A stretch of DNA of 63,417 bases, the filler included, from a bacterium (GTDB taxonomy: Bacteria > JADJOY01), in assembly GCA_046331705.1 (NCBI GenBank). It is 9 parts of 9 records of this genome, joined end to end, with 100 filler letters (N's around TTAATTAATTAA, not from the genome) between each part and the next. Parts side by side here need not be neighbours in the genome. Positions count along the whole stretch, not along the records: positions 23,424 to 32,012 come from JAXLQJ010000106.1; 8 more parts are not named here. The stretch is one strand, 5' to 3'. Below are positions 4,130 to 32,112 of this stretch, piece after piece. A model generated the notes under the pieces. The model saw nothing but the letters and a program-made list of their open reading frames with translations, was not told where the DNA came from and made no database searches. Every line of letters starts with the position of its first letter. Within the stretch, counting starts at the first letter, position 1. A program made the position numbers and the translations under genes.

Positions 4130-4141
4130 CCGAACTATTCC

Positions 4142-4219
4142 TGGTGTCCCCAGGAGGATTTGAACCTCCGTCTCAGGACTGAGGATCCTGCGTCCTGGGC
4201 CGGGCTAGACGATGGGGAC
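4142..4219 (-). tRNA. tRNA-Glu (CTC)
   Basis: Reverse complement folds as a cloverleaf: acceptor GTCCCCA/TGGGGAC, anticodon stem CAGGA/TCCTG with loop TC-CTC-AG, T-loop GGTTCAAATCC, encoded CCA. Confidence 0.9.
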
Positions 4220-5315: not shown

Positions 5316-5603
5316 GCCGGAAATCGCGTCGTCGGCGCGGCGTCGTGGACGTCCGAAGCGTGCCCTCGCTGCGCCGGGATCGACAGATCGCCGCGCGTTG
5401 CGAACGGATCCCCGCCCGTTGCGTGCGGTGCCTTCCCAGCAGCCCCTCCGCTGGCGGCGCCGCACGGCGCCGCTGGGCTGGTACGCGAGGGGGCGGATCG
5501 GCCAGGCGAGCGAGTGCGTGCCAAGCGCTTGTTGGCCGTTGGCTCACGCCGCCGCGGGGATCGCCGCGGCACGCGACGTGATGGCCGGCAGCGCCGCCGT
5601 GCG

Positions 5604-5930
5604 CTACGGCTCGAACGAGCAGACGTACTCGGCGATGCCGGACGCGACCGTGATGTCGAAACCCGAACGCGCCGGCACGCGGAAGCTGGTGCCCGCGCCG
5701 TGGTCGCGCCATTCGCTGGTGCCGTCGAGGCGAACGCGGCAATGCCCGGCGACGATCTCCATCACTTCGGCGGCGTCGGTGCCGAAGTGGAACTCGCCCG
5801 GGTAGATGAGCCCGAGCGTCTTCCGGCTGCCGTCGGCGAAACGGATGGTGTGGCTCACGACCTTGCCGTCGAAATAGACGTTGGCTTTCGCGACGGCGGT
5901 GACGTTCGAGAATTCGCGGGTGTCGTTCAT
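5604..5930 (-). CDS. ppnP: Pyrimidine/purine nucleoside phosphorylase (YaiE/DUF1255)
   Basis: KANVYFDGKVVSHTI.FADGSRKTLGLIYPGEFHFGT.AAEVMEIVAG...YVCSF. Confidence 0.9.
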   Translation of the reverse strand: MNDTREFSNVTAVAKANVYFDGKVVSHTIRFADGSRKTLGLIYPGEFHFGTDAAEVMEIVAGHCRVRLDGTSEWRDHGAGTSFRVPARSGFDITVASGIAEYVCSFEP

Positions 5931-6123
5931 GGCGGCCGAGTTTGGCACGGACGAAGGGGCGACGTGCTCGGGAGCGATTCGCCGCGGTGCGCGGCGCGTC
6001 GGGCCGGATTTCGCGAAGCGCTCGCCGTGGCGTGCGCGCGAGCGGTCGAGCTGATCTCGAGTTGCGGGGTGAGTTGAGGGTTGCGGCGGATGACGCGCGC
6101 ATCTAGCATGGCGCGCGCCGATC

Positions 6124-7107: not shown

Positions 7108-8253
7108 ATGCCCGGAGCCGGGCTCGACCGGCGCGCAGCCGCCGGCGGAGGCGCGGCGGATCGTGCCGCGGCTCGAGCGGTAGTCGCGCGCGGTCTGGTG
7201 CTGGTTTCGTTCGCGATGGGGGCGGTGGGCTACGTCCTGGCGGTGCGGGCTCGCCACGGCGCCGCGATCGCTCCCCGCGACCCGCCGCGCGTGACTCGCC
7301 CCGCGCCGGTCACCGAGTCGCGTCGGCCGATCGGTGACGCACCGCCGATCTCCACCGCGCCCCCGCCCGCCCCAGCGCCGGGCGACTCGCTCGCCAACGC
7401 CGCTTCGCGAGCGCTCGAAGGCACCAGCGTCGACGGCGAGTTGGTGGTCGGGCTCGACGGACATTTTCGTCCCACCGCCGCGGCGATCCGCTTGTTTCGC
7501 CATTTCATGACGGCCAACGGCGAATGGAGCCGTGATCAGGTCCGCCGCCGCATCGAGAGTGAGATCGACGCAAGGCTGGCTCCGCCCGCGTCCGCCGAGG
7601 CGCGCGCGTTCCTGGATCAGTACGTCCGTTATCTGGATGCGAGCCGGAGTCTCGATCCCGCCGGGCTCGACGCCCGCGACCTCGCGGGGCGGCTTTCCCA
7701 GGTTCGCGACCTGCAGCGATCCATCTTCGGCGCCGCGCTCGCCGAAGCGCTCTTCGGCTCCGAGAACGCTCTCGCGGAGGCGGCGCTCGATCGGCTGATG
7801 GCACGCCTCCACGCGACCTCGACCGCCGAGACTCCCGCGCCGCGCGATGGAGAGAGCGAGCGTGACGGCGGTGCCGAAGACCGCCTCCCCCCCGAGGTGC
7901 GCGCGATCCGCGAGCGTGCCGCCGCGCCCATCGAGAGCGCTCGGCAGGTCGAGTCGCTCCGTCGAGGCGGCGCCGATCCGGAAGAGGTGCGTGCCGAGCG
8001 GGTGGCGCGCTTCGGCGCGGACGCCGCCGCGCGACTCGAAGACCTCGACCGCCAGCGAGCGCAGTGGGAAGCGCGCCTCGCCGCCTACCGGGTGGCGCGC
8101 GACGCCGTGTTGCGCAACCCCGCGCTCGACACGGCGCAGCGCACCGCGGCCCTGGAGCGAGTGCGCGAAGAGCGATTTTCGGGCGACGAGATCCGCCACG
8201 TCGCCGAGCTCGACCGGCTCGACGCGAGTGCGGCAGCGATGAACGCACACTGA
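7108..8253 (+). CDS. Lipase-specific foldase (Lif/LipB chaperone)
   Basis: N-terminal TM anchor, SRALEGTSVDGEL, RLFRHFMTANGE (R..FDYFL-type motif), RFGADAAARLEDLDRQRAQWEARLAAY; directly after the lipase. Confidence 0.9.
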   Translation: MPGAGLDRRAAAGGGAADRAAARAVVARGLVLVSFAMGAVGYVLAVRARHGAAIAPRDPPRVTRPAPVTESRRPIGDAPPISTAPPPAPAPGDSLANAASRALEGTSVDGELVVGLDGHFRPTAAAIRLFRHFMTANGEWSRDQVRRRIESEIDARLAPPASAEARAFLDQYVRYLDASRSLDPAGLDARDLAGRLSQVRDLQRSIFGAALAEALFGSENALAEAALDRLMARLHATSTAETPAPRDGESERDGGAEDRLPPEVRAIRERAAAPIESARQVESLRRGGADPEEVRAERVARFGADAAARLEDLDRQRAQWEARLAAYRVARDAVLRNPALDTAQRTAALERVREERFSGDEIRHVAELDRLDASAAAMNAH

Positions 8254-8339
8254 GCGATCGCGCCTCGGGCCCCGAGCAGCGTCCGCGCAGCCGCGCCACC
8301 CTGGGACCACCGGAATCCCGGGTGATCTCGGCCGACTCC

Positions 8340-8415
<76 letters not shown>

Positions 8416-8708
8416 GTAGCTGCCACCTACTTTGATCGATGGCGTCTTGCTCGTGGAGTCAGCGGCGTGCGCTCGCGACGGCGACGTTGTCGCTCGACCG
8501 TTCGCTCCGGCACCGCGCCGACTGCCCGATCATCCCCTGTGTTGTAGCGCCCAACGGCAGCGATTGTCTTGTCCTCGGCCGCCCGCCCCGTGGGCCGAGA
8601 GCCGCGGGCCTCGAAGCCGCTCGTGAGCGCCGCCGCACCGAGGGTCGCCGCCACTCATCCGGGAGCCCGGACCTCAAGCCCGTGGGCGAGCCAGCCGAAG
8701 AGATGCCC

Positions 8709-9143
8709 ATGAGCCTCATCGGCGGCATCCGGGCCGGTCCGAGTCGGCGTCTGTTCGCGTACTTTCTTCCGCTCGATCTCGTCTTCAAGGTACTCACGTT
8801 CGTTCCGTTCGTTGCCGGGCTCCGGATCGCAGCCGCCGGGGAGCGCGCGTCGGTTTACGCCTTTCTGGCCATCCTGGCGGGCGTCGGGCTCGCGGTTTGG
8901 ATGGCGTGGGCCGTTCGGTATCTCCGTCCCGTCGACCGCTGGGAAAGGCAGCACCTGGAGGATGCGTCGTCGGCCGAGGCGCTCGCGCGGGCCGCGAAAG
9001 CCATCGCCTGGGCGCCTTCGAATATTGCTGATGCTCTTGTCAGAAGTTCGCCGCGAGCGTTCGTTTCGAGGACGGCTCGTTCGCCGATTGAACGGAGAAT
9101 CCTGGCGCGCATGGTTCATGCACGCGCCTCGGCCGCGGTGTGA
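8709..9143 (+). pseudogene. Two-TM membrane protein fragment, possibly the truncated N-terminus of a sensor
   Basis: Two hydrophobic segments followed by LRPVDRW..; the frame then degenerates. Confidence 0.3.
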
Positions 9144-9250
9144 GCCAGGAGTGGCGCCGACGCGTCGCGCGGCGTCCCGCGCCGTGCGCTCGCAGGCGCG
9201 AGCGGCCAACCGTCGAAAGGCTTCGCGGGCCGCAGGATCCCAGCGCCGTC

Positions 9251-10975
<1,725 letters not shown>

Positions 10976-11109
10976 GGGGCGTGTGGCGCGGGCGTGGGCA
11001 ACGGCCGCGTCCTGTGCGCGTGTCGTCGATGATACCGATTCAATTCGCGCGCCGAAACGGCGCCACGCCATCGTTCGAGCGCGCCGACGCTAGCGGTGCG
11101 CGTATCCGG

Positions 11110-11230
11110 TGAGCTTTCTCAGACCGAGTGCGAGTGCGCTCGGGTATCGGTGCCTCGAGCCGCGTTGAGATACGGCTGTGCTCGCGTGAGGGCGAGCAAC
11201 TCAGCGCTTCGTGCAGGTGACTCAACGCGG
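11110..11230. promoter_or_regulatory. Candidate upstream activator sequences
   Basis: TGAG-N4-CTCA (11110-11121), TGAG-N9-CTCA (11187-11203), and a perfect 10-bp inverted repeat CCGCGTTGAG (11160-11169) / CTCAACGCGG (11221-11230), about 80-200 bp upstream of the -24/-12 element. Confidence 0.4.
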
Positions 11231-11311
11231 ACCGATCGCGGCGAGCGCCGGGCTCGCTCTCGCCTCGCGGAAAACGCCAACGATCTCCGCGATCGTTCGC
11301 GACGTGCCCGG

Positions 11312-11327
11312 CGGCACGTCTCTCGCA
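11312..11327 (+). promoter_or_regulatory. Sigma54 (-24/-12) promoter for the RING-E1-E2 operon
   Basis: cGGCACGtctcTCGCa: GG (11313-14) and GC (11325-26) separated by exactly 10 nt, against consensus TGGCACG-N4-TTGCW. Confidence 0.65.
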
Positions 11328-11541
11328 TTCGCAGTGCAGCGTGCGCGTGATGTGACGCGCGCCGTGCCGCACGCGAGGCCGGTGGTCTCGATCGCCGGTG
11401 CCTCCGTCCTCCGCGTCCCATGGCAGCCGAAGCTGGGCGTGGTGCGCACTGCGCGCGAGGCGTGGTGCGCGCTGGTGGCGATCGCAGTCGTGTTGCATGT
11501 TCAAGCCGATCGTGAATCGAAATGCAGAAGGAGCGAACGGC

Positions 11542-12096
11542 ATGGCTCAGCTCTTACTCAAGCCGTCGAGCCAGGAAGGTGAGTGGACGGTCCGTCCGAT
11601 CGACACGGACGCCGCGCTGGCGCTCGACGAGCGCGGTGCCGCGCGCTCGCTGCGGCGCTGCGACGTGCTCGACGTGTTGCTGCGCGCGCCCGATGGCGCG
11701 GTGCTGCTGGGTGTCGGCGGAGCAGGAGAGCGCTGGCTGCTCGTGGCACGTGCCGGCGTCGATCTTCACGTCAACGACCGGCCAGTCTCGGCGGGTACGC
11801 GCGTGCTGCGCGACAAGGACGAGATCCGCCTGGGCGCCGGCGCGGTGCCGATCTTCTTCTCGACGGAGCGCGTGGCGCGGATCGAGCCGTTCGAGGGCAG
11901 CGGCGTCGCGGCGAGCTGCCCCCGTTGCCGACTGCCGCTCGAGGCCGGCGCGCCGGCGGTGCGCTGCCCGAGTTGCGGCGTCGCGCACCATCAGCGTGAG
12001 GGGCTGCTGTGCTGGACCTACGCCGAGTCCTGCGCCGTGTGCGGTCATCCGACGCCGCTCGAAGCGGATCTTCAGTGGGTCCCGGAGGCGGTGTGA
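11542..12096 (+). CDS. FHA-like domain plus prokaryotic RING finger (candidate E3 ligase)
   Basis: AAGGAG RBS. LHVNDRPVSAGTRVLRDKDEIRLG resembles the FHA C-terminal strands. C-x2-C-x12-C-x2-C-x3-HH-x6-CW-x5-C-x2-C RING-type pattern. Confidence 0.75.
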   Translation: MAQLLLKPSSQEGEWTVRPIDTDAALALDERGAARSLRRCDVLDVLLRAPDGAVLLGVGGAGERWLLVARAGVDLHVNDRPVSAGTRVLRDKDEIRLGAGAVPIFFSTERVARIEPFEGSGVAASCPRCRLPLEAGAPAVRCPSCGVAHHQREGLLCWTYAESCAVCGHPTPLEADLQWVPEAV

Positions 12097-12172
12097 AGCG
12101 GCGCGGCCCGCGCGGAAGCCGCGTGGGCGCGCGTGCGTCGATCGAGCCAACGATGAGGAGCGAGGGAAAGCC

Positions 12173-13309
12173 GTGGTGACCGTGACGTTGATCGGGCTTG
12201 GGGTGGTTGGGTCCCACGCCGTGGGACTGCTCATCCGGATGGGGCTCATCGACCGGCTGATCCTGGTCGACCCCGACGTCTACGACGAGTCCAACCTCAC
12301 GAGCCAGTGCATCGAGCCGCGGGACGTGGGGCGGCCGAAGGTGCTGGCGCAGAAGCGACGGGTGCGCGCGATCGCGCCCGGCATCGACGTCACGGCGATC
12401 CAGAGCCGCCTCGAGGACCTTCCGCCTGGACGACTGCGGGCGGACGTGATCGTTACGTGCCTGGATTCAGCCGCGGCGCGGATCGACGCGAACGAGATCG
12501 CGGGAATGCTGGGCGTGCCGCTCATCGATACCGGTGTGCGCGGCGCGGATCTGCTGGGTCGCGTGGATGTCTACCTGCCCAGCCCGAGATGCGCGTGCTT
12601 CGAGTGCCTGCTCGCGGCCCACGACTACCAGCAGGCCGAGGTCGTTCACTCGTGCGAGGAAGGTCGCGATCCGCGCCGCGCGCGGCCGACACCGGCGCCA
12701 AGCGCGACGTCGGCCGCCCTCGGCTCGTTGGTCGCCTCCGCGACGGTCGTCGTGCTCGAGGAGCTCCTGCGCTCGCGCGATCCGGGCGCGCTCGCCGGCC
12801 GCCGCATTCTGTTCGAGCTCCGAAACCATCGGCACGCCGTCAGCCGGCTACCGTTCAATCCCGCGTGCCGGCGCTCGCCGCACGAGCCGTGGGCGATTCG
12901 ATCGTTCGGCGAGCACGCCTCGCGCCTCACGTTCACCGAGCTTCACGCGCAGGTGGGCGCCGCCACGAGCGACGCCGCCATCCGGATCTTCGGCACGCGC
13001 TTCGTGACCGAGGTCGTGTGCGTGCGCTGTGGGCGAAAGCGCCGAGTGGTGCGCGTCGAGCGCGGCCTCGGTGGCGCGCGGGGTTGGTGCGGTGCATGTC
13101 ATCGCCCGATGGAAGTGACGAGCCTCGGTCTCGTGGAGTGGCTGCCGCTCGCGGCGCTCACGTCGCGTGAGCTGGATCGCGCTCTCGAGAGCTTCGGCCT
13201 CGCGCGCGGCGACGTCGTCACGATTCGCTCACGCGGGACCGAGCGACACGTCGAGCTCAAGTTGCCGCGCGGCGCGGGCGGCGCCGCGCAGGCGAGGGAG
13301 GAGTCATGA
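12173..13309 (+). CDS. ThiF/MoeB-family E1-like activating enzyme with C-terminal Zn ribbon
   Basis: LIGLGVVGS (GxGxxG), VDPDVYDESNLTSQ, GRPKV, CLDS.AAR, CFEC, candidate catalytic HSC, C-terminal CVRC...CGAC. GTG start inferred. Confidence 0.88.
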   Translation: MVTVTLIGLGVVGSHAVGLLIRMGLIDRLILVDPDVYDESNLTSQCIEPRDVGRPKVLAQKRRVRAIAPGIDVTAIQSRLEDLPPGRLRADVIVTCLDSAAARIDANEIAGMLGVPLIDTGVRGADLLGRVDVYLPSPRCACFECLLAAHDYQQAEVVHSCEEGRDPRRARPTPAPSATSAALGSLVASATVVVLEELLRSRDPGALAGRRILFELRNHRHAVSRLPFNPACRRSPHEPWAIRSFGEHASRLTFTELHAQVGAATSDAAIRIFGTRFVTEVVCVRCGRKRRVVRVERGLGGARGWCGACHRPMEVTSLGLVEWLPLAALTSRELDRALESFGLARGDVVTIRSRGTERHVELKLPRGAGGAAQAREES

Positions 13310-13685
13310 ACGATCCGCAGTTGCAGGGCTTCCTGCGCGAGCAGCAAAAGGCCGCGCACGCGCTCAACGCCGCCAGCGATGTGGTGACGCTGGTTCCGTT
13401 GCCGCGCGGCTTCCACGCGCTCGACACGCTGGGCGGGCTGCTTCAGCTCCTCGGTGCCCCGGTGGCGCTCGACGCGGAGCCGGGGCTCGGTCCGGAGACC
13501 GAAGAGCCCCCGACCCACTACCTGGCCCGGTTCTCGTGCGGAGGGTTGGTCCGGAACCCGGACGGGAGCGTGCGCACGGCCAGCGACTGGCTCGTGGGGA
13601 TTCGCTTTTCCGACGACTACCTACGCCGCGTACGACCGTTCGAGGTGGTGACGTTCATCGGTCCCGAGAGCGTGTGGCACCCCAA
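13306..13685 (+). CDS. E2 (UBC-like) conjugating enzyme, 5' part; continues at 31991-31751 on the minus strand
   Basis: GGAGGAG RBS, ATGA overlap with E1. Ends ...VGIRFSDDY...GPESVWHP at the contig end; the last 21 nt overlap the contig 3 end. Confidence 0.85.
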
Positions 13686-13785
13686 NNNNNNNNNNNNNNN
13701 NNNNNNNNNNNNNNNNNNNNNNNNNNNNNTTAATTAATTAANNNNNNNNNNNNNNNNNNNNNNNNNNNNNNNNNNNNNNNNNNNN
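13686..13785. other. Artificial contig linker (also 23324-23423, 32013-32112, 38885-38984, 45642-45741, 51190-51289, 54587-54686, 60160-60259)
   Basis: N-run, TTAATTAATTAA (stops in all frames), N-run; 100 nt each. Confidence 0.99.
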
Positions 13786-23098: not shown

Positions 23099-23423
23099 CA
23101 AGATCCCTACTGAGCGAGCCTGAGCGGGCCGCGCGTGCGCCCCGACGGGCGCACTCGTGCGAACGTCCGGGCGCAGCCTCGGATCCGCCCCCACGGAATT
23201 CACGAACGATCGAGCGATCGGCGGAGCGGCACGCCGCGTGCGTTCGGTTCGCCCACCATGGCGCGTCCGATCCGATGGCTTCAGCCCCACACGCGCTGGT
23301 TCGTCACATCCCGTGCGCTCGAGNNNNNNNNNNNNNNNNNNNNNNNNNNNNNNNNNNNNNNNNNNNNTTAATTAATTAANNNNNNNNNNNNNNNNNNNNN
23401 NNNNNNNNNNNNNNNNNNNNNNN

Positions 23424-25607
23424 CTCGCGAACGACGTCGCCGCCATGGGGCCGGATGCGCAGCTCCGCCGCGCGCGCCGCCGGCGTTCCGATCGCGATCG
23501 ATCCGTCGCTCGACGCGGACGCAAGCCGCTGACTGCCGTCGGGACACCAGGCCAGGCTGTAGACCACGTCCCGATGCGGGCGCGTCTCCACGTGGGCGCC
23601 GAACCGCGCGCCGCCCGCCTCGCCGCGCTCGACGGCCCAGATGCGCACGGTCCCGTCGCAATAGCCCACGGCGAGCTCGCCCCGATCGGACCACGCGAGC
23701 GATCGCGCGGAGCCCTCGGAGACGCGCGCGCTGTCGAGCGCGATCCCGTCGCGGCTCCAGAGCCGGACCTCGCCGTCCTTCGCGGCCGATGCCAAGAGCG
23801 CACCACGCCGATCCCAGCGCACCAGACGCACCCAGTCGGCGTGGCCTTCGAGCGTGGCGACCGCGCTTCCGGTGGCGTCGTCCCAGAGTCGGACGGTGCC
23901 ATCCGTGGACGAGCTCGCGAGCCTGAGCCCGTCGCACGACCACTCGAGCCAGCTCACCGGCTCCGCGTGACCGGAAAGCTCGCGGATCAGCCGCACGCCG
24001 TCGAGGCGTTCCCGGCCTCGCTGCCGAAGGCGCAGCATGCGCCCGATCGCGTCGTTCGGACCTCCGGCTGGCTCGGGTACCCAGCTCTCGACCGTCGTGA
24101 ACGGGTCCGTGAGATCGAGTCGCTCGAACCCGTCGCCCTGCGATGCGGGCCGCCAGACGGCGCGCCAATCGCAGAGCGCCTTCGGCTCGTGCGCCAGCTT
24201 CCGCACCCACTCGCCGCGCAACCGGGCGCGCCCTTCGGACGGCGGCTCGGTGAGCGCCGGCTCCACGTCCTCGGCGCCGCGCACCCGATGGGCGGCGAGC
24301 CCCACGGTCTCGAGCTGCGCGTGAAGTCCGTTGCGCCCGATCTCGGCGAAACGCCAGTCGATCTCGAAGAGCTCGGCGCGCAGCGCTCGCAGCCGTGCGA
24401 ACGCGTCGAAATCGGGTAACGCCGCATCGGGCGGCGCGAACGACCGGTACGCGCGCCGCGCCTCCCCAGCGTCTCCGATCACCAGGTCGAAAGGACGAAG
24501 CTGCGGGTTGCGGTCGTGGGCTGCTGGCCACTGCCGCCGCAACGCCACGAGCGCGGCGTTGAGCTGCTCGATCTGCTCGCGGGTGAATCCGCGCTGGGCG
24601 GCGTGCTGGGCGAAGAGCCGACGTTTGGCCGTCCAATCGAGCGAGAGCTCGGTCGCGTCGTCGAGAGCGTCGAGCCCGTCGAGAACCGCGCGCCACTCGC
24701 GGCACGCTTCGCGGGCCCAGCTCGGCAGATGCACCGCGCCGTCGCCGAGGGCGCCCTCGACGACCGCGAGGTACGCACGCTGGAGCTCGATGGCGCTCGC
24801 GAGCTCGCCGCCCGCCACTCGGGCGCGCTTCGTGAGGCCCGGATCGCGCGCGAAGCGCTGCATCGCCGCGAGCGGTCGCACGAGCTGCCCGCGCGCACCG
24901 AGCGCTCGGCCCTGCTCCGCGAGCGTGATCACCAGCGCCGTGGTGGCGAGCTTGAGCCAGAGCGCGCGATCGGACGCATTCGACTCGCCGCAGATCAGAT
25001 GGACGCGCTTCTGACCTGGCGGCGCGTGGGGCTCGTCCCGGGTGTGGAAGATCGGTCGCTCGGTCTGACTGTCGCCGCCGATGTCGCGGGTCAGATGATG
25101 GACCCGCGGCGAGAGCGAGAACGCGATCCCCGGCGACGACGCATCGAATCCGCCAGCGCCCGTGTACACGATGCGCGAGACCAGGTGCGGGATCAGCACC
25201 CGCGCCAGGCCCGCGATGTCGCCGCGGAAGAGATAGCTCTCGTGGGTGCCCCACGTGCACCCGGACACGTAGTCCACGTTGGTGCGAAAGAGCTTGCCGT
25301 CGACGGGGCCGCCCTCGCTCCGCAGCAGTCGTGCCAGGATCCGCTCGCCGGCGCGGACGTAGCGCACGGCGTCCGTGGGATCGACGACCTCGGCCGTAGC
25401 CACCTCGGGGTGCCAGCCCGCGTCGACGTAGAAGCAAGAGCCGTTGGTGAGCCAGAGCCGCCGCCCGCTGGCGTCGCGCAGATGAGGGAGCGTGGATTGG
25501 GCGGCGCGGAACAGCTCCTCGACGAGCGCTCCCGAAGGGCGCGTTCCCGAGACGAACGCGAACTCGGTCTCGACGCCGAAGAACGTCCGCGCCGCCGCTG
25601 CTGGCAT
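23424..25607 (-). CDS. PafA-like Pup ligase fused to C-terminal WD40 repeats (3'-truncated by contig end)
   Basis: FFGVETEFA, NGSCFYVDAGWHPEVATAE, TWGTHESYL, RPIFHTRDEPHA, RVHLICGESN, RARLRGEWV..CDW..LTDPF, then at least four GH...LAS.S.DG.VRLW repeats. ATG overlaps the Pup stop (TAATG). Confidence 0.9.
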
Positions 25608-25807
25608 TACTGGCCTCCCTCCTGGCGGCTCGCGGCCAGGAACTGCTCGCTGTTGCCCGAGAGCACGCGGCGCACGATGTCCTGGCCCGCCGCGAGCAGC
25701 CGATCTCCGGCCGCGCGCGCGGCATCGAGCGCACCCGCCCCATCGTCCGCGCCGCTCGGCGGCCCGCCCGTCCCCGAATGCTCCCGTCGTCGTTCGCGTT
25801 CCGACAT
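25607..25807 (-). CDS. Pup-like (prokaryotic ubiquitin-like) modifier, 66 aa, ending GGQ
   Basis: GGAGGTGAGG RBS; low-complexity N-terminus; C-terminus SEQFLAASRQEGGQ resembles Pup AEDFVRAYVQKGGQ; lies between the dop-like and pafA-like genes. Confidence 0.88.
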   Translation of the reverse strand: MSERERRREHSGTGGPPSGADDGAGALDAARAAGDRLLAAGQDIVRRVLSGNSEQFLAASRQEGGQ

Positions 25808-25813
25808 GACACC

Positions 25814-27583
25814 TCACCTCCCATACGTTCGGCTCGTGCCGTGGACCGGCAGGAGCGAGTTTCCCCATCCGCGATCGGGCACGTCCTCGGCGTGAAGCGC
25901 ATCGAGGAGCGCCGACAAGCTCTCGTTGGCCGCGAACGCCGCACCCGTTCGCGCCTCGCCGCGCTGCGCCGGCCGATCGAGCCGGACCACGCGCTCGCGC
26001 GAGCGGCCGTTCGATCCGCCGCCGCGCACGTGGACCCGATCCCAATCGACCTCCGTCACCCGCTCGCCGGCGCGCCGGAGCAACATCGCCCGCGTCCACG
26101 CGCGCGTGTCCGGTGGCGGCTCGCGGACGAAGCGATCGATCTCGTCGTCGCTGACGAGGCGGCGCGACAGCCCGGCGCGATCGAGCGCCCAGAAGATCCC
26201 GCCCTCGGGATCGAGGCTCGCGTAGACGAGATCGAGGTGCTTGATCGCCGGCGAGTCCCAACCGAGCCGAGGCTCGCTGCTCACCACCTCGTCGAGGAGC
26301 GCGCGCTTTTGGACCCAGTCCAGCTCCGAGCGCAGCGCGTCGAAGTCGCGGCGGCCGAGCTTGTCGAGGGTCTCGGACCAGATCTGGACGATCTCGCGGG
26401 CGCCCGGAACGATCTCCTCGATGACGTCGCAGCGCTCCACGAAGCGTCCGACATCCTCCAGGAATTGCAGCTGCAGCTCCACCGCCGTCACCGCGCCGCC
26501 CGACACCAGCCGCGCCCGCACACCGAGATCCGGATCGTGTGACCAGGACCGAAACGCCTCGACCGGATCCTCGAGAATCCGCTCGACCCGCACCGCCTCG
26601 GCTTCGATGAGCGCGGACACGAGCTGCATGAGGCCCACGCGCAACAGCATCGACACGTGGTTGAGCGTGGTGTCGAAGCTGATGACGTGCAGCCGCGCGA
26701 AGCGGTGGTCCTGACCGCGCGAATCGTCGCGCCATCGATCCCGCTCGCCACAGAGTGCTTCGTCGCGCGTGTTGACGATGGGACGGTGGTACGTGGTCTG
26801 TGGGCCGCTCAGCGTCTCGATGAAATCCGCGCGCTGCGAGATCTGGAACGGGACCGCGGGAGCATCGTTCTCGCTGCCGACCTTTCCCTGGCCGGTGAGG
26901 ACGATCGCCGAGGCCTGGAAGGAGGCCAAGAAGAGCGCGTAGTGGAGCTTGCGGTGGAAGAGGTTCTCCCACGCTTGGCGCGACACCAGCACGTTGAGAT
27001 GGCCGCCGTAGCTCTGCCCCTGGCCGTCCGAGTTGTTGGCGAGGACCTGGATGGGCTCGTCGCCTCCACGCTTGGCGTTGGCGTTCTCCTGCGCACGGCG
27101 CGCGATCCGGAACATCGCGTGAAGCGCGGCGACGTGATCACGCGCACAGCGAACCTCCGGGATGCAGAGCTCCAGATGGTCGAGATCGATGTACGCGCAG
27201 CCGCCGTTCGACGCGAGGTACTGGCGTCCGATGTCCTGCGGGTCCTCACGCCCGTATGCGCCGTACGCCGAGCCGTAGCCTGCGCCGTACCCCGAACCGT
27301 ACGTCGACCCGTACCAGCCGCCGTAGCGGCGGTCGCTCGCCGCCGGCCACGACGAGGCGAGCGGCGCCGCGCGTTTGGGAAGCCCCTCGATTTCCGCGAG
27401 CAGCGCCCGCGACGCCTCTCGACCGCTGCCGGCGCCGGTCGTGGAGCTCGCGGACGCACCCTCGGGCGGCGCACCTCCACGTCCGGTGACGAAGTTGCCG
27501 AGCTCCACGTCTGCCCCGGTGATCTTGGGCACGAGGAAACGAACGCGGCTGCTCGGCGCTCGTGCTCGATTCGGCTTGGCCAT
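25814..27583 (-). CDS. Dop-like Pup deamidase/depupylase (PafA/Dop family)
   Basis: KITGADVELG, long loop before NGGCAYIDLDHLE, NNSDGQGQSYGGH, GQGKVG, FQISQRADFIE, RPIVNTRDE, RLHVI, PPPDTRAWTR, VDWD. Confidence 0.88.
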   Translation of the reverse strand: MAKPNRARAPSSRVRFLVPKITGADVELGNFVTGRGGAPPEGASASSTTGAGSGREASRALLAEIEGLPKRAAPLASSWPAASDRRYGGWYGSTYGSGYGAGYGSAYGAYGREDPQDIGRQYLASNGGCAYIDLDHLELCIPEVRCARDHVAALHAMFRIARRAQENANAKRGGDEPIQVLANNSDGQGQSYGGHLNVLVSRQAWENLFHRKLHYALFLASFQASAIVLTGQGKVGSENDAPAVPFQISQRADFIETLSGPQTTYHRPIVNTRDEALCGERDRWRDDSRGQDHRFARLHVISFDTTLNHVSMLLRVGLMQLVSALIEAEAVRVERILEDPVEAFRSWSHDPDLGVRARLVSGGAVTAVELQLQFLEDVGRFVERCDVIEEIVPGAREIVQIWSETLDKLGRRDFDALRSELDWVQKRALLDEVVSSEPRLGWDSPAIKHLDLVYASLDPEGGIFWALDRAGLSRRLVSDDEIDRFVREPPPDTRAWTRAMLLRRAGERVTEVDWDRVHVRGGGSNGRSRERVVRLDRPAQRGEARTGAAFAANESLSALLDALHAEDVPDRGWGNSLLPVHGTSRTYGR

Positions 27584-27606
27584 GGCTCACCTCGCGCGCG
27601 CGGCGC

Positions 27607-29298
27607 TCACGCGGCGCGCAGAAATCGGTAGCTGCGCCGCGAGGGCTTGCGCACCGGATCGATGCGCACCACCTCGCGGTCGGTCGGGAAGTCGTCGAGG
27701 TGCTTGGCGCAGTTCAGGGGCGTGAGCACGCGCACTGCGCTCTCCATCTCGTCGGTGATGGCGTCGAGCACGTCGACGAGGCCAAGCCCCGCCCCGCGCC
27801 CGTCCGCCTCGCGAACACACGCCCGCTCACTCGCCACACGCGCGACGTTTCGAAGGTGCGCCCCGTTCACCAGGTGTGACGGCTCGACCGTCTGGGTGCG
27901 CCCGTCGCGGAACGTGAGTGTCGCGAGCGGCCCGAGCCCGTTGGGCGAGAAGATCCGCGCGACCGCCGCCGCCAGGATCTCCTCGCGCGCCTCGCGCGGG
28001 TTGCGTCCCGCGAGCGTCCACGGGAGGTCCTCCGCGAACACCTTGCGCAGGATCTGCGCCACCGCCGCGCGCCCCGGACGCGGCACCTCGATGATCTCGT
28101 CGCCGAGCCGACCGGGACGCAGCGCCGCCGGATCGATGGCGTCGCGGCGGTTGGTCGCCGCCATCACCAGCACGTTCGAGCGCGGGCTCAGCCCGTCGAG
28201 CTCGGCCAGGAGCGCCGCCATCACCCGGTCGTGAACGCGGTGGTGGCCCTGCCCGCGCACCTCGGCGATGGCGTCCACCTCGTCGAAGAAGATCGCGACG
28301 ATCTCGTCCGGGTTTTCGCGCGCGATCTGGTTCGCCAGCTCGAAGAGCTCGCGGATGTTCTTCTGCGACTGCCCGAACCACATGCTCTCGAGCTCGCCGG
28401 GCCGGACGTGGATGAAGCGCGCGCGCCCCGCCGGCGAGAGTGAGCCCAGGTAGTTGGTGAACGCGCGCACCAACATCGTCTTGCCGGTGCCGGGAGGGCC
28501 GACCAGCAGCACCGAGCCGCGAGCGCGCAGCCGATAGCGCGCCACCAGCTCGGGATGATGCGCTCGCAACCCGATCGAGCGCTTCATCGCGTCGATCTGC
28601 GCATCCAGCCCGGCGAGGTCGTCGAACGTCTCGGTGGGGATCTCCGCGCAGAACCGCGACCGTCCGTCCTCGCGCTCGATGCGCTCGAACGCGAGCCACA
28701 GGCTTCGATCCCAGCGCACCAGGTCGCCCGGATCGAGGGTCTGCTCGCGAAGCGCCGCGGTGGCGGTCGCGACCACTTGCTCGTCGCGCACCTCGAGCAG
28801 GAGATCGCCACCCTCGAGCCAGCGCACGAAGCTCCCGATCTCGCCGGCGCGCGACGCCCCGCCCGGCGCCGAGGACACGATGGTGTTGAGCCCGCCCGCG
28901 AGGAGCACCTCGTCGCCCCGACGCAGCGCGCTCGGGTCGACGCCGTCGCCGTACGTCACCACACGGCGCCCCGCGTTGGTGATCACCCACGCGCCGGGAC
29001 CGCGCGCGGTGCCGGCCGCGCCGAGATACGTGGCCGGCATCAGCGGCGGCGCCGTGAGCCGCGCGTGAAGGTCGCGCAGATCCTCGAGCATTCCCTCCAG
29101 CCGCTGCACGGCCGTCGCCCGCTTCTCGTACTCGGCGAGCAGGAACGTGCTCATCTCGAGCGAGATCGGCTCTCCGAGGCGCTGGATCATGGCCAGCAAG
29201 GCCTGCTTCTCGGCGGTATTGGGAGCGCCTTCGCCGACGGCGGCGAGCTGCGCCTTCCAGACCGCGATGTCGGGATCGGTGCGAGGGTTTCGAGGCAT
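27607..29298 (-). CDS. ARC/Mpa-type proteasome-associated AAA+ ATPase
   Basis: N-terminal coiled coil ending LTAPP, OB-like region (LRRGDEVLL; LDPGDLVRWD), GPPGTGKT, SMWFG pore loop, IFFDEVD, ATNRRDAIDPAALRPGRL, ARC-like LTFRDGRTQTV...NGAHLRNV. Confidence 0.9.
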   Translation of the reverse strand: MPRNPRTDPDIAVWKAQLAAVGEGAPNTAEKQALLAMIQRLGEPISLEMSTFLLAEYEKRATAVQRLEGMLEDLRDLHARLTAPPLMPATYLGAAGTARGPGAWVITNAGRRVVTYGDGVDPSALRRGDEVLLAGGLNTIVSSAPGGASRAGEIGSFVRWLEGGDLLLEVRDEQVVATATAALREQTLDPGDLVRWDRSLWLAFERIEREDGRSRFCAEIPTETFDDLAGLDAQIDAMKRSIGLRAHHPELVARYRLRARGSVLLVGPPGTGKTMLVRAFTNYLGSLSPAGRARFIHVRPGELESMWFGQSQKNIRELFELANQIARENPDEIVAIFFDEVDAIAEVRGQGHHRVHDRVMAALLAELDGLSPRSNVLVMAATNRRDAIDPAALRPGRLGDEIIEVPRPGRAAVAQILRKVFAEDLPWTLAGRNPREAREEILAAAVARIFSPNGLGPLATLTFRDGRTQTVEPSHLVNGAHLRNVARVASERACVREADGRGAGLGLVDVLDAITDEMESAVRVLTPLNCAKHLDDFPTDREVVRIDPVRKPSRRSYRFLRAA

Positions 29299-29359
29299 CG
29301 TTCTCCGTCCTTTCCGCCGCCAGCCGTGCGGCCAACGCATGCGCGCTTCCTTCCCTGCC

Positions 29360-30391
29360 TCACGGGCTCGGTGCCGCGAAGAACCCGCGCTTCGCCATGC
29401 GGCCGAGCCTCCAGCCGAAGAGCGCGTGGCGCAGCTCGTCGGCGGCCGTGTGGGTCACCACCAACGCGACGTTCCACGCGCGCGGAAACACCGTGCGGTG
29501 AAGCGCCACGTCGTGCTCGCTCAGGAAACCTCTCGCCAGCGAGCAATCGCGCTGGCGCTCCGGCGGGCAGTCCTTGCACCCCCACGCGTAGACCACGTGG
29601 GAATGCCACCAACCCACCATCATCTCGTTGCCGCCGCGCAGCGCGATCGCGGCGCGCACGTCGGTCCAGGTCTCGGGCTGGAACGTGAGACGGGTGGCGG
29701 TCGCGAGCGTGTGGCGCGCCGGGATCTGGGCCGTGACATCGGCGAAGACCTGCCTCGTCTCACAGTCGCGGCGGAGCGCGCCGATCAAGATCCCGCCGGT
29801 TTCCTGCCCGTGATTGCGCCGGGTCAGCTCCTCGCACTCGGCCCGGATCCGATCCGGCACGATGACCGGCATGTCCCCGTCGGTGCCCTCGCCCACGTGA
29901 GCGGCGTCGGCCGTGAACGTCGCGAGCCGACCGGGAACGAGCGAGAGGCTCGGCGGCGACTCGCTCACGACCACCGCCTCGCCCTCGCCCTCGCCCGACG
30001 GATGCGCGCGCTCGCGTGGGAACGCGCTCACGAAGAAGCGGTAGCGGTCGCCGGCCGCGAGCTTCCCATCGCGCACCAGCACTTCGGCGACCGCCCGGGT
30101 CGCGTCCTCGAAGTACGAGGTCGGGAAGCGGCGCTCGATCGCAGCACCGCCCGGTGCCACGACCACCACACGAAATCCTTCCAGATACGGCGCCCCCGCG
30201 CTCGGGTGCCAGAGCGGCTCGATGCGTGCGGCGCTCGCGGGCACGGCCGCGTCCAGCTCCCCGGCGCGAAACGCCGAGAACCAGGTGGACTCGAAGGCCG
30301 GGTCGAGGTCCACGTCGAGTGGACCCGACCCGAGCGGCGTGCCGTCCTCCCGGTAGATCGAGGCTACGAACAGAAGCTCATCGGTGTTCAT
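29360..30391 (-). CDS. JAB/MPN+ (JAMM) metalloprotease with N-terminal extra domain
   Basis: ETGGILIG, GWWHSH...FLSEHD.ALH; Cys-rich insert between HSH and SxxD. Confidence 0.9.
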   Translation of the reverse strand: MNTDELLFVASIYREDGTPLGSGPLDVDLDPAFESTWFSAFRAGELDAAVPASAARIEPLWHPSAGAPYLEGFRVVVVAPGGAAIERRFPTSYFEDATRAVAEVLVRDGKLAAGDRYRFFVSAFPRERAHPSGEGEGEAVVVSESPPSLSLVPGRLATFTADAAHVGEGTDGDMPVIVPDRIRAECEELTRRNHGQETGGILIGALRRDCETRQVFADVTAQIPARHTLATATRLTFQPETWTDVRAAIALRGGNEMMVGWWHSHVVYAWGCKDCPPERQRDCSLARGFLSEHDVALHRTVFPRAWNVALVVTHTAADELRHALFGWRLGRMAKRGFFAAPSP

Positions 30392-30440
30392 GGCACCCGT
30401 CCCGCGCACCGCTCACCCGGCACGAGTGCCGGGTCACGGT

Positions 30441-30728
30441 TCACGCACCCGCACCCGCATCGATCGACGGCTGGATCACCAGCTCGTCACCCGGCTGAAG
30501 CGCGTCGCCCACTCGCTCGGACGGCACCAGGTGCCGCCCCTCGCGATCGAGGCGCGGATGGTAGGCCTGCGGCCGGCCGTCCGCGTCCTTCGCTGGCAGA
30601 CCAAGCCCCTTCACGATGTCCTTGAGCAAGAGCTCGATCGTGCGGTCCGGCGGCGAGGCCATGTCCACCCGCTTCTGGCCCGTCACGTCCGTGGCGCGAA
30701 AGGCGATGGAAAGCTGTGAATCACCCAT
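30441..30728 (-). CDS. Ubiquitin-like (beta-grasp) protein, 95 aa
   Basis: GAGGAG RBS. Beta-grasp-like pattern (strand-strand, helix TIELLLKDIVKGLGLP, ...SERVGDALQPGDELVIQP), C-terminus IDAGAGA; adjacent to JAB. Confidence 0.8.
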   Translation of the reverse strand: MGDSQLSIAFRATDVTGQKRVDMASPPDRTIELLLKDIVKGLGLPAKDADGRPQAYHPRLDREGRHLVPSERVGDALQPGDELVIQPSIDAGAGA

Positions 30729-30800
30729 GACGTTCTCCTCTTCAGCGGTGTGCTGAATTGCGATCGGCTCGCCGCCGCCGGCGGTGGGCCGATCGTCGGT

Positions 30801-31754
30801 TCACTCCTCCACGTCCTCTGCCGCCTGGACCTCGTCCCCCCACACGTCGACACCGCGAGCGGCGAGAAACGCCCGTGCCGCAAGCTCGTCGGCGAGGCAG
30901 GCCACCTCCCGGTGCGACGCTTCGAACGCGGCGCTCATGGCGCCGAGCGCCAGATCGAGCGCGCGCGGTGTCGCCGGCGCCGGCAACCAGATCTCCCAAC
31001 CGAACGTGCGCTCCGGCTCGGGGCCGCAGATCGGGCGCGCGAGCCGCACGCTCGCCGCGACCTCGAGCAGCAACCGCGCGGCCGCTGCCCGACCGACCAC
31101 GCCGCACGGCGGCGACGTCGCGAGCGTGCCGCGAACCCAGATGCCATCGGGCTCATCGGTGACCCGCGCCTCGAGACTGACGTCGTCGGAATCGAGGTTC
31201 ACCTCGACGACGTCGCCCGGCGTGCGCATCGACACCCACTCCGTGTCCGCGAGCACGTGAAGCAAACCGTCCAGATCCGGCGCGTAATCCGGCGCGGCGT
31301 TCTCGCTCGACACCGCCGGCGCATCGTCGAGCGAGGTGTTCGCGTGAGCCCGGTGCAGCGCCGCAGGGACCTGGTCCAGCAGCACCGCGAGCCAGCGATC
31401 CGCGCCGAGCGTGAGCGGCACGTCGGCGAGCAGCGCGTGCGCCTTCGTCGCACGTGGGCGCGCGATCCTCACCCCGCCGCCCAGCTCGCGCGCGAGACGC
31501 AAGACGTCCAAGTCGCTCACCGGCGCGAGCGCGCCGTCGAGGGGCACCGTGAGCCCAAGCCAGGCGCCCTCGAGCTCGGCCCAGCCCTCGACGAGCCGGC
31601 CATTGCGATGCTCGAAGCGCATCTGGCGCGGATCGGCGGAATCGATCCGCGCACCGCTGCGCGCGAAGGCGCTTCGCACCTCGCGCGCCGCGCGACCGCT
31701 CTCGCACCACCCATCCATGTCCTGCATGCCAGCCACGCGATCGACGGCGTTCAT
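30801..31754 (-). CDS. Hypothetical 317-aa protein (possibly tandem YbjN/chaperone-like folds)
   Basis: ATGA overlap with the E2 stop; lies inside the operon; fold guess is from hydrophobic pattern only. Confidence 0.6.
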   Translation of the reverse strand: MNAVDRVAGMQDMDGWCESGRAAREVRSAFARSGARIDSADPRQMRFEHRNGRLVEGWAELEGAWLGLTVPLDGALAPVSDLDVLRLARELGGGVRIARPRATKAHALLADVPLTLGADRWLAVLLDQVPAALHRAHANTSLDDAPAVSSENAAPDYAPDLDGLLHVLADTEWVSMRTPGDVVEVNLDSDDVSLEARVTDEPDGIWVRGTLATSPPCGVVGRAAAARLLLEVAASVRLARPICGPEPERTFGWEIWLPAPATPRALDLALGAMSAAFEASHREVACLADELAARAFLAARGVDVWGDEVQAAEDVEE

Positions 31755-32012
31755 GCCGAGACCTCCGATGCTTGCGCCGGCGGCGCGCGACGCTTGAGCG
31801 GGCGCGTATCCACCGGAAAGCGCGAGCGGTTCGCGGGGTCGCGCGCCCACGCCGCGGCCGCGGGATCGAGGCAGTCGTCGAGCCGGAACCGGTTCCAGCT
31901 CACGATCTCCCAGACCTGGTAGACGAGATCGAGAAGCGCCGTTCCCGCGGTGACGTTCCCGATGCAGATCGCGTGCTTGCGACCGGCGATGTTGGGGTGC
32001 CACACGCTCTCG
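31751..32012 (-). CDS. E2 (UBC-like) conjugating enzyme, 3' part
   Basis: VWHPNIAGRKHAICIG (HPN...catalytic C), LLDLVYQVWEIVSW, DCLDPAAAAWAR (PLN.EAA-like), FPVD.RPL. Confidence 0.88.
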
Positions 32013-32112
32013 NNNNNNNNNNNNNNNNNNNNNNNNNNNNNNNNNNNNNNNNNNNNTTAATTAATTAANNNNNNNNNNNNNNNNNNNNNNNNNNNNNNNN
32101 NNNNNNNNNNNN

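Follow-up and report, generated by a model that had tools for sequence, protein, structure and literature searches.

The DNA analysed here, a stretch of 63,417 nucleotides (hereafter the window) in which nine parts of one bacterial genome assembly are joined, carries a gene for a putative Pup-like tag on the minus strand at 25607..25807. Pup is a bacterial "ubiquitin-like" protein tag. The gene encodes 66 residues, with an ATG start, a TAA stop and the C-terminal end FLAASRQEGGQ; an M-S-E-R-E-R motif stands at the N-terminus, the first ~30 residues are rich in Gly, Pro, Arg and Glu, and a disordered middle is followed by a C-terminal helix region and the GGQ end. The sequence GGGAGG occurs 9-14 nt 5' of the ATG, within the last codons of the upstream Dop-like gene, whose TGA stop lies 6 nt from the ATG of the tag gene, and the TAA of the tag gene overlaps the ATG of the next, PafA-like gene as TAATG. 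The genes around the tag, with stops and starts that overlap or lie 6 nt apart, are thus operon-like in their arrangement. An earlier note on this DNA had described a 66-residue ORF with a ribosome binding site, a low-complexity N-terminus and this C-terminal end in the dop-pup position, and both the ORF and its position were found as described, on the minus strand.

Then, is such a short ORF a gene? The DNA has 71% G+C, and 113 ORFs of at least 50 residues occur within 16 kb here, so that the size of the tag ORF alone is compatible with chance. The ORF is counted as real because it is conserved after the Dop-like gene in relatives. That is, a tag-size ORF (62-69 residues, mostly with a GG(Q/E) end) follows the Dop-like gene in 70 of the 78 non-self related metagenome loci; the other eight lack room for it, since four Dop-like genes run off the contig and four have at most 200 nt left. 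By this conservation and by the profile matches described below, a spurious ORF is excluded, and, judged from sequence, the tag gene is real. In addition, two contigs of 151 nt from a metatranscriptomic library span the tag ORF with one difference each (25628 G>A and 25706 T>C), both at third codon positions and synonymous in the tag frame. It should be noted that such libraries can contain DNA, and that this coverage does not demonstrate transcription. Between 5 and 6% of the sampled words of the stretch are present in two metatranscriptome runs of one study, as short contigs over scattered parts, and the parts without contigs carry no meaning.

The gene upstream of the tag (25814..27583, minus) encodes a Dop-like enzyme of 589 residues that belongs to the Pup-ligase family (PF03136, 308.9 bits) and is predicted to be a deamidase/depupylase. 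Its scores of 267 bits on the Dop model (TIGR03688, cut-off 492.3) and 212 bits on the PafA model are both below the equivalog cut-offs; against PDB sequences it scores 181 bits with Dop and 110 bits with PafA, with its residue 116 aligned to Dop residue 76. The Dop-loop is what sets Dop apart from PafA, according to the part of PMC7947786 consulted. In the Dop-like protein, ~85 residues separate the first strand motif from the next conserved block, compared with ~31 in the PafA-like protein, and this ~85-residue insertion lies at the position of the Dop-loop, with a Gly/Tyr-rich sequence unlike that of the loop in Dop.

On the other side of the tag, a loop-less PafA-like Pup-ligase domain joined to a WD40 propeller is encoded at 23424..25607 on the minus strand (Pup_ligase 265.1 bits, plus WD40), with the 5' part of the listed feature cut by the contig end. 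The assembly break splits this gene inside its WD40 repeats, and the gene continues on contig C29 of genome G000 (L015:11375-11803, minus), the two contig ends sharing an exact overlap of 55 nt. A second PafA-like/WD40 gene of 838 residues comes next, with an ATGA overlap. Two PafA-like ligases with WD40 propellers are present here; TPR fusions occur in relatives. The PafA-like protein scores 200.1 bits on the PafA model (TIGR03686, cut-off 551.3), level with the 198.7 bits on the Dop model, and both PafA-like proteins are loop-less, in that they align to PafA from residues 3-6 and to Dop only from residue ~50. In phmmer searches, both score higher with Dop than with PafA (159 versus 107 and 209 versus 145 bits), and so does the loop-less paralogue from a canonical Pup system (387 versus 330). 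Such a ranking against PDB Dop and PafA thus does not discriminate, and the assignment of the Dop-like and PafA-like roles rests on the loop. The PafA-like pair groups with the loop-less paralogue of the canonical Pup system (SH-aLRT 92) in a quick tree, 8 of whose 22 inner branches are open and whose set holds no actinobacterial sequences.

The complex of the Dop-like protein with the tag was also modelled. The ipSAE value was 0.89 in all three runs, the best of three controls giving 0.00; at least 89% of contacts are shared between the runs, with a partner pLDDT of 68 or more. In the model, tag residues 53-66 contact residues 27-37, 133-136 and 186-195 of the Dop-like protein, among which E27, D133, L134, H136, D186, G187, Y192, G193 and H195 are invariant in alignment A1, and tag residues 29-49 contact residues 415-472; the C-terminus of the tag is thereby predicted to lie in the active site. 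The mark used for such models is reached by 116 of 157 solved complexes and by 2 of 215 mismatched pairs, and since the model may pass it by resembling the Dop-Pup and PafA-Pup structures already solved, what it shows is likeness and not binding.

These genes are part of a larger cassette, in the order E1, E2, a conserved protein, beta-grasp Ubl, JAB, Mpa-like ATPase, Dop-like enzyme, tag and PafA-like ligase. Next to the Dop-like gene lies the gene for an Mpa/ARC-like AAA+ ATPase (27607..29340, minus) with a coiled coil, OB domains and an AAA domain (AAA 110.9 bits, Prot_ATP_ID_OB_C 29.1 bits, OB_N weak), which scores 245.8 bits on TIGR03689 (cut-off 504.75). It is followed by a JAB/MPN-domain protein of 349 residues, a predicted Ubl peptidase (29360..30409, minus; Prok-JAB E 8.8e-5; 42% identity to the JAB gene of the related locus L025), and by a beta-grasp ubiquitin-like protein of 95 residues (30441..30728, minus) ending in IDAG plus a 3-residue tail. 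The AF2 model of the latter has a pLDDT of 86.5, and its top Foldseek matches are ubiquitin, SUMO, NEDD8 and bacterial and Caldiarchaeum Ubl proteins. Between the Ubl and E2 genes, a conserved protein of ~317 residues (30801..31754, minus) has no Pfam match and is of unknown family; a YbjN domain is found in one of its relatives. The UBC-type E2 gene is itself split, its C-terminal part (beginning ...WHPNIAGRKHAIC...) lying at 31751..32012 on the minus strand, which continues the ORF that ends contig C102, and its N-terminal part at 13306..13685 on the plus strand, at the end of that contig. In the E2 alignment A6, the H-P-N motif does not vary and the Cys is almost invariant, and the model of the relatives' E2 (pLDDT 91.1) has almost only E2 enzymes among the top Foldseek matches listed. 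The E1-like (ThiF) gene (11522..13309, plus; ThiF 98.9 bits) has an ATGA overlap onto the E2 gene and 35% identity to the ThiF genes of related cassettes.

The cassette is conserved. Among relatives with enough flank, the ATPase is present in 53 of 54, JAB in 42 of 43, Ubl in 40 of 41, E2 in 29 of 29, E1 in 25 of 29 and the PafA-like gene in 47 of 50, and the ~317-residue protein is found in 31 of the 32 related loci with room for it. PADLOC matched none of the tag, Dop-like, PafA-like, E2 and Ubl proteins; its only matches, weak and generic, were to the E1 domain of E1-E2 models (best 46.6 bits), to JAB (20.2 bits) and to TRIP13/IetA for the AAA domain, so that a known anti-phage system is unsupported. 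In the literature searched, neither the tag family nor WD40-fused Pup ligases nor a cassette combining E1/E2/Ubl/JAB with Pup-type genes was found described, and an earlier mention of each is possible.

The GTDB phylum of the host assembly has only six species genomes, and the host is therefore non-actinobacterial, as the earlier note had supposed; a sigma-54 activator on a linked contig agrees with this. Searching genome contigs with the Dop-like protein, only one distant Nocardia locus was matched, and the source names for the partner enzymes of the tag family include Acidobacteriota, Verrucomicrobia, Eisenbacteria and Margulisiibacteriota. Searches of the other five genomes of the phylum did not find the cassette, and it may thus be a recent, possibly idle acquisition. 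No 20S proteasome was found when the genome was searched for one, the only match being HslV, and the 84 neighbouring ORFs include no proteasome genes. Both the E1/E2/Ubl/JAB context of the tag and the lack of 20S are points beyond the earlier reading.

How does this arrangement compare with known systems? As in C. glutamicum, control genomes carry Pup-type enzymes and an ARC-type ATPase without 20S subunits. According to the part of PMC13696103 consulted, Corynebacterium glutamicum pupylates without proteasomal subunits, a condition similar to that found here; however, C. glutamicum is an actinobacterium with canonical Pup, and has neither ubiquitin-type genes alongside nor WD40-fused ligases. 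In the part consulted of Iyer, Burroughs and Aravind (2008, PMC2588565), Plesiocystis and Rhodopirellula are given Pup together with a membrane-inserted Pup ligase. This resembles the window in having a non-actinobacterial tag with a G-(E/Q) end by a PafA-family gene and unlinked to proteasome genes, but those ligases contain four transmembrane segments, and a membrane protein is linked to them, whereas the ligases here are soluble with C-terminal WD40 and the neighbours are E1, E2, Ubl, JAB and the ATPase. The other half of the cassette is similar to the bacterial ubiquitination-like operons with E1, E2, Ubl and JAB/peptidase (PDB 8tyx; bioRxiv 10.1101/2024.11.21.623966), which share the ThiF E1, the UBC-fold E2 with H-P-N and Cys, the Ubl ending in A-G plus a tail, and JAB; the terms Pup, PafA, AAA+ and proteasom- are absent from that preprint.

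The tag family itself was characterised with a profile. At E<=0.001 it matches 936 cluster representatives, and at E<=1e-10 it still matches 458. The representatives stand for clusters at 50% identity, and the former count is a lower bound. All of the best 150 matches are 62-91 residues long, and these 150 representatives end in GGQ (115), GGE (29), SGQ (4), MGE (1) or GGK (1). Loss of the conserved C-terminus in syntenic ORFs had been named in advance as an argument against the tag; since 144 of the best 150 end in GGQ or GGE, that argument fails. The features specific to the family are an M-x-x-R-E-R motif at the N-terminus, an A-I-x-R-A-L-S-G-x-S core and an invariant R/K-Q before GG. The suggestion that the sequence defines a separate family is thus borne out by the profile, and the question is how that family relates to Pup and to UBact.

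That the tag is an ordinary Pup missed by current HMMs, so that no separate family is warranted, appears unlikely. The length class, the GGQ end and the position after a Dop-type gene are all alike, and the tag (66 residues, GGQ) fits the Pup signature of 50-90 residues with a C-terminal G-(E/Q), as given in the part of Iyer et al. (2008, PMC2588565) consulted. Actinobacterial Pup (PF05639, TIGR03687; PDB 7px9_G and 3m9d_G), which works with Dop, PafA and Mpa/ARC, is likewise small and mostly disordered, aligns with the tag at the C-terminus, is preceded by an Mpa-like ATPase gene, and docks with its terminus in the enzyme active site, which for the tag is a prediction of the model. Weak Pfam Pup matches are found in 7 of 65 family members (best E 3.2e-4), and weak TIGR03687 matches in two (best 0.0078). 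However, the other 58, the tag of the window included, have no Pup match at E<=10, although a control Pup scores 79.2 and 54.7 bits on the two models; hmmscan of the tag against Pfam and NCBIfam gives no match even at E<=10, and PF05639 finds nothing at E<=10 across the whole genome. The tag, below all Pup model thresholds, has its own N-terminal, core and R/K-Q motifs, the PafA-type gene follows it immediately with no prcBA between, and the ligases are WD40-fused within an E1/E2/Ubl/JAB cassette, with no 20S in the genome. A remote relationship is nevertheless seen: the six best matches of the family profile in PDB are all Pup (E 0.0011-0.1; 22.7 bits, which is weak in absolute terms), and hhalign aligns the family end-to-end with Pup over the C-terminal 25 columns at 68.6% probability (E 4.6e-5), the Pup profile being built from only two tool-derived sequences. 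Homology of the C-terminal region to Pup thus appears weak but specific, which agrees with the earlier description of the sequence as only loosely Pup-like. UBact, which Lehmann and colleagues reportedly described in BBRC in 2017 (as cited in PMC5751360) as a tag of Nitrospirota-type Gram-negative bacteria, is also a small tag outside Actinobacteria that adjoins two Pup-ligase paralogues, with a common Arg/Glu-rich N-terminal motif, a terminal G-(Q/E) and R/K-Q two to three residues before it. Membership in that family is nonetheless extremely improbable and is rejected here, in line with the earlier remark that the tag lacks the UBact-type end: none of the 65 members matches PF20513 or NF033388 at E<=10, whereas true UBact ORFs score 71.8-77.1 bits; hhalign gives 0.5% with UBact, the same as for the control pair of UBact and Pup; and all 23 UBact ORFs collected end in R-(T/S)-G-Q, while the tag ends in Q-E-G-G-Q and its family in GGQ or GGE.

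Two further readings concern what the small protein does. It could be a regulator or chaperone-like peptide that binds the Dop-like and PafA-like proteins without ever being joined covalently to targets; only the binding step has support, from the model, and no conjugates were observed. We consider this quite improbable, because a ligated carboxylate would require the strict conservation of the last residue and a groove-binding peptide would not, and because the modelled terminus reaches active-site residues. The other reading deserves more weight, although we hold it as a possibility and not as the expected case: the tag would be one arm of an integrated machine and not of independent pupylation, in which Ubl (through E1/E2) and the Pup-like tag (through the PafA-like ligases) feed one AAA+ unfoldase, JAB and Dop recycle the two tags, and components of either system might be modified by the other. 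Where relatives have enough flank, the two gene sets nearly always lie contiguously, genes across both halves are tightly spaced or overlapping in the window, and a single ATPase gene lies between the halves. However, adjacency does not demonstrate a shared pathway, and 23 of 40 relatives have a second ATPase-like gene (AAA_lid_9) after the PafA-like gene, so that "one motor" is not strict.

The reading that we prefer, with good though not full confidence, takes the ORF to encode the tag in a conjugation system of the Pup type, as a member of a large Pup subfamily for which no model exists so far. In the mechanism proposed, the 66-residue tag would be mostly disordered, and its C-terminal half (residues ~29-66) would dock in helical form in the groove of the enzymes of the Pup-ligase family. 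Of these, the Dop-like enzyme would deamidate the terminal Gln66 to Glu and later remove the tag, while the two loop-less PafA-like paralogues would phosphorylate the terminal Glu and join the tag to target lysines, the fused WD40 propellers probably choosing or holding the targets. Unfolding of the target would then fall to the Mpa-like AAA+ ATPase, once it has engaged the tag. As the search gave no 20S proteasome, the target would probably be unfolded, disassembled or handed over to another protease rather than degraded by a proteasome.

A bolder proposal, put forward tentatively, joins the Pup-like tag with the beta-grasp Ubl as the two arms of one machine that tags and unfolds without a proteasome and would correspond, in bacteria, to the regulatory particle of the proteasome. 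If this is true, an AAA+ ring would be served by a JAB peptidase acting on one tag and a Dop-type hydrolase acting on the second, PafA-type ligases would have gained substrate-receptor domains (WD40 here, TPR in relatives) like eukaryotic E3 ligases, and the tag family, with features of both Pup and UBact, would form a third major Pup-like branch.

Pupylation is essentially an actinobacterial and Nitrospirae trait, sporadic elsewhere, according to the parts of PMC7947786 and PMC2588565 consulted. The tag family is present in many uncultured non-actinobacterial bacteria, where it shares a cassette with a ubiquitin-type system and an unfolding motor, and with no proteasome. As current annotation models do not name these tags, they will probably go unnamed when genomes are annotated. 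What emerges points to a third, large family of Pup-like tags with at least 936 clusters at 50% identity. Its fixed position beside a complete set of E1, E2, Ubl and JAB genes and an Mpa-like ATPase gene, with no proteasome, provides a case in which the parallel working of two tagging systems of unrelated chemistry can be tested. The fusions to WD40 and TPR would give a first hint that Pup ligases can have substrate receptors built in.

The 66-aa ORF ending in GGQ at window positions 25607-25807, which the earlier note had described, is present as stated, and we add that it is encoded on the minus strand. It is carried by contig C106 (window 23424-32012; 8,589 b; 71.4% G+C) and runs from an ATG at 25807 to the end ...FLAASRQEGGQ, followed by TAA. 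Its Shine-Dalgarno sequence, GGGAGG, falls within the last codons of the upstream Dop-like gene (25814-27583, minus strand; PF03136, 308.9 bits), whose stop codon is separated from the tag ATG by 6 nt. At the other end, the tag stop shares bases (TAATG) with the ATG of a gene fusing a PafA-like enzyme of the Pup-ligase family to WD40 repeats (23424-25607, minus strand), which is cut at the contig end. The Dop-like enzyme scores higher on the Dop model (267 bits) than on the PafA model (212 bits), both far under the NCBI equivalog cut-offs. Further upstream is an AAA+ ATPase of the Mpa/ARC-like type that contains OB domains (27607-29340, minus strand; TIGR03689, 245.8 bits versus a cut-off of 504.75).

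An ORF of this size is unremarkable in such G+C-rich DNA, where 113 ORFs of at least 50 aa were counted in 16 kb, and the case for the tag gene is therefore built on conservation. In two metatranscriptomic runs from one study, small shares of the window sequence are present. Two 151-nt contigs from them (25532-25682 and 25673-25822) together span the tag gene, which is not proof of transcription; each has one difference, by our own reading in a third codon position and synonymous in the tag frame.

Among 8,000 scored candidates, 1,641 relatives of the Dop-like protein were found at E<=1e-20, the closest non-self ones being about 47-54% identical. Where the source is named, they are annotated as PafA2-family, dop or Pup amidohydrolase and come from metagenome-assembled genomes of Acidobacteriota or Blastocatellia. 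Based on an alignment of 25 of these relatives, 80 metagenome loci were retrieved, of which two are 100% identical to the window. An ORF of 62-69 aa lies directly 3' of the Dop-like gene in 70 of the 78 non-self loci, and all but a few of these ORFs end in GG(Q/E); the other eight have no room for it, since the contig ends within the Dop-like gene in four and at most 200 nt remain in four. A profile was then built from 63 distinct tag sequences, the window's own tag and a single relative from a database. Its consensus begins with M-x-x-R-E-R (M-S-E-R-E-R in the window's tag), continues through a variable Gly/Pro-rich middle and closes with the conserved L-L-A-A-G-D-x-A-I-x-R-A-L-S-G-x-S-x-x-F-L-x-A-x-R-Q-x-G-G-Q. 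Of 1.84 billion cluster representatives searched with this profile, 936 reached E<=0.001, among them 458 with E<=1e-10. Every one of the top 150 is 62-91 aa long and covers essentially the whole profile; they end in GGQ (115), GGE (29), SGQ (4), MGE (1) or GGK (1), and 92 of them contain no lysine. The collection of syntenic small ORFs that the earlier note had called for thus shows the terminal GG(Q/E) to be conserved, not lost.

Could this family belong to Pup, or to UBact, reportedly described in 2017? The window's tag matched no Pfam or NCBIfam family even at E<=10, and the Pfam Pup model had no match at E<=10 in the whole genome. Positive controls were recovered: UBact ORFs of two unrelated genomes scored 71.8-77.1 bits on PF20513 and NF033388, and a canonical Pup ORF reached 79.2 bits with PF05639 and 54.7 bits with TIGR03687. 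Among the 65 aligned members, weak matches were obtained with the Pfam Pup model for seven (best E 3.2e-4), with TIGR03687 for two and with the UBact models for none. Against the PDB, the top two matches of the window's tag alone are Mycobacterium tuberculosis Pup (E 0.19 and 0.3, with the alignment reaching the last residue), and the top six of the family profile are Pup chains (E 0.0011 to 0.1). Profile-profile comparison with Pup, whose profile consists of two sequences, aligned the last 25 columns with 68.6% probability (E 4.6e-5); comparison with UBact (23 sequences) gave 0.5%, as did the yardstick of UBact versus Pup. Taken together, the profile comparisons and model scores identify the family as a remote relative of Pup, closer to Pup than UBact is and outside the coverage of current models. 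The earlier description of the tag as only loosely Pup-like, not of the UBact type and perhaps defining a separate family is borne out on these points. An Arg/Glu-rich N-terminal motif occurs in both families (M-x-x-R-E-R... in the tag, ...P-L-R-R-E-E-K-K in UBact), whose profiles do not match, and R/K-Q is found shortly upstream of the C-terminus in the tag family and in the collected UBact ORFs.

According to the available text of PMC7947786, Dop and PafA are discriminated by a Dop-loop of about 40 residues, which Dop has and PafA lacks, together with an alpha-loop. In the upstream enzyme, about 85 residues separate the first strand motif, G-A-D-V-E-L-G-N-F (residues 23-31), from the next conserved block, which begins at residue 116, a residue aligned to Dop residue 76; in the downstream PafA-like enzyme, the same interval spans about 31 residues. 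Moreover, alignments of the two downstream enzymes start at PafA residues 3-6, but at Dop only from about residue 50. Based on the loop spacing and alignment starts, the upstream enzyme is called putatively Dop-type and the two downstream ones putatively PafA-type. In phmmer searches, PDB Dop outscores PDB PafA for the loop-less cassette proteins; because this is equally true of a loop-less paralogue taken from a canonical Pup system, the raw ranking is unhelpful for assigning roles. In a quick tree of 25 sequences, none of them actinobacterial and with no completed careful search, loop-bearing and loop-less cassette proteins form two clades (support 100 each), the latter beside the canonical loop-less paralogue (SH-aLRT 92). 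The Dop-loop position of the window's Dop-like protein carries a Gly/Tyr-rich low-complexity run (residues ~85-112; window ~27250-27330, minus strand). In relatives the insertion there has a C-x-C-x-x-C motif, which might bind metal.

Complex models of the Dop-like enzyme and the tag, each supplied with its family alignment, gave an ipSAE of 0.89 in three of three runs (contact agreement at least 89%, partner pLDDT at least 68), and the best value among three controls was 0.00. For the mark used, the pass rate was 116 of 157 among solved complexes and 2 of 215 among mismatched pairs. Tag residues 29-49 are placed on Dop-like residues 415-472, and residues 53-66 at residues 27-37, 133-136 and 186-195, segments that include nine invariant alignment columns (E27, D133, L134, H136, D186, G187, Y192, G193 and H195). 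As modelled, the tag would dock in the known binding mode of Pup; because Dop-Pup and PafA-Pup complexes have already been solved, such a pass indicates likeness and not binding.

The nine window contigs are joined by N44-TTAATTAATTAA-N44 linkers (13686-13785, 23324-23423, 32013-32112 and five more), and three contigs can be chained by their ends, with genes split at 13685/32012 and 23424. Over 55 nt, the start of C106 matches exactly the terminal sequence of contig C29 (91.8 kb), so the first PafA-like/WD40 gene runs on into C29, where a second one, of 838 aa, overlaps it by ATGA (minus strand; L015:8865-11378, an extracted locus of C29). The other end of C106 continues the ORF that closes contig C102 (window 1-13685). 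Directly upstream of the ATPase, Dop, tag and PafA genes is a complete ubiquitin-type gene set (window 11522-13685, plus, and 29360-32012, minus). It comprises E1 (11522-13309, plus; ThiF, 98.9 bits), a UBC-fold E2 (13306-13685, plus, then 32012-31751, minus, split across C102 and C106), a protein of unknown family of about 317 aa, a 95-aa beta-grasp Ubl and a JAB protein; genes 6-10 are the ATPase, the Dop-like enzyme, the tag and the two PafA-like/WD40 fusions. The E2 reads W-H-P-N-I-A-G-R-K-H-A-I-C across the contig junction, and in relatives H-P-N is invariant and the Cys nearly so; among the top Foldseek matches listed for an AF2 model of the relatives' E2 (pLDDT 91.1) are almost only E2 enzymes. 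The C-terminus of the Ubl, like that of its relatives, consists of ...I-D-A-G and a short tail (0-22 residues in the relatives). Structures matched by the Ubl model (pLDDT 86.5) are those of ubiquitin, SUMO, NEDD8, a bacterial Ubl (8tyx) and Caldiarchaeum ubiquitin.

This gene order is conserved among relatives. Counting only loci with enough flank, we found the ATPase in 53 of 54, JAB in 42 of 43, Ubl in 40 of 41, the unknown protein in 31 of 32, E2 in 29 of 29, E1 in 25 of 29 and the PafA-like gene in 47 of 50. Downstream, an AAA_lid_9 ATPase-like gene is present in 23 of 40; its product, of about 390 aa with a weak AAA match, follows the PafA-like gene (e.g., L025:9585-10757 and L081:9425-10621, two of the loci), and the homologues in the present assembly are only about 30% identical and lie elsewhere, on contigs C2 and C81. 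A sigma-54 enhancer-binding activator (window 9251-11071, minus strand; 131.6 bits) is located divergently upstream of the E1 gene, and sigma-54 activators flank the cassette in loci L040 and L071 too, which suggests sigma-54 control.

A WD40 propeller is located at the C-terminus of each tandem ligase. In a set of the second ligase's 120 best relatives, WD40 occurs in the query only and C-terminal TPR repeats in six; others, of 688-939 aa, lack any recognised extra domain, and several have long unassigned C-terminal extensions. Protein-interaction domains thus recur on Pup ligases of this clade, and they may act as substrate receptors.

The assembly (8.17 Mb, 95.7% complete) belongs to a GTDB phylum with six species genomes in all. 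The host is therefore not an actinobacterium, in agreement with the earlier impression and with the sigma-54 activator on a linked contig. Contigs from each of the five phylum relatives match the interior of C29 at 76-88% identity, so the cassette resides on a genuine contig of the host lineage. The last 12 kb of C29 have no counterpart in these relatives (74-100% complete), in which the Dop-like protein also has no match. Consequently, the cassette appears acquired and looks like an island, with its nearest enzyme relatives named as Acidobacteriota. A repeat of about 300 b (L125:9400-9745, at ~39.4-39.7 kb of C29) has many copies, partly tandem, in contigs of this assembly and two same-genus relatives, with 74-88% identity. 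The sole PF00227 match in the genome is HslV (210 bits); by this search a 20S proteasome was not found, and domain checks of 84 ORFs in 10 related loci revealed no proteasome subunit.

Pup-like tags beyond Actinobacteria have been known since 2008, as the available text of PMC2588565 indicates. Sporadic Dop/PafA homologues are noted in the accessible part of PMC7947786 for NC10, Armatimonadetes, Verrucomicrobia, Nitrospinae, Firmicutes, Proteobacteria and Planctomycetes, and 'Acidobacteria' is absent from its main text. Pup, PafA and AAA+ go unmentioned in the available portion of a preprint from 2024 that deals with Ubl operons of bacteria (bioRxiv 10.1101/2024.11.21.623966). The tag family, WD40-fused Pup ligases and the combined cassette are all undescribed in the literature searched, which excluded preprint supplements and the UBact paper. 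The main interest lies in how large this unnamed tag family is and in how constantly a ubiquitin-type system accompanies it.
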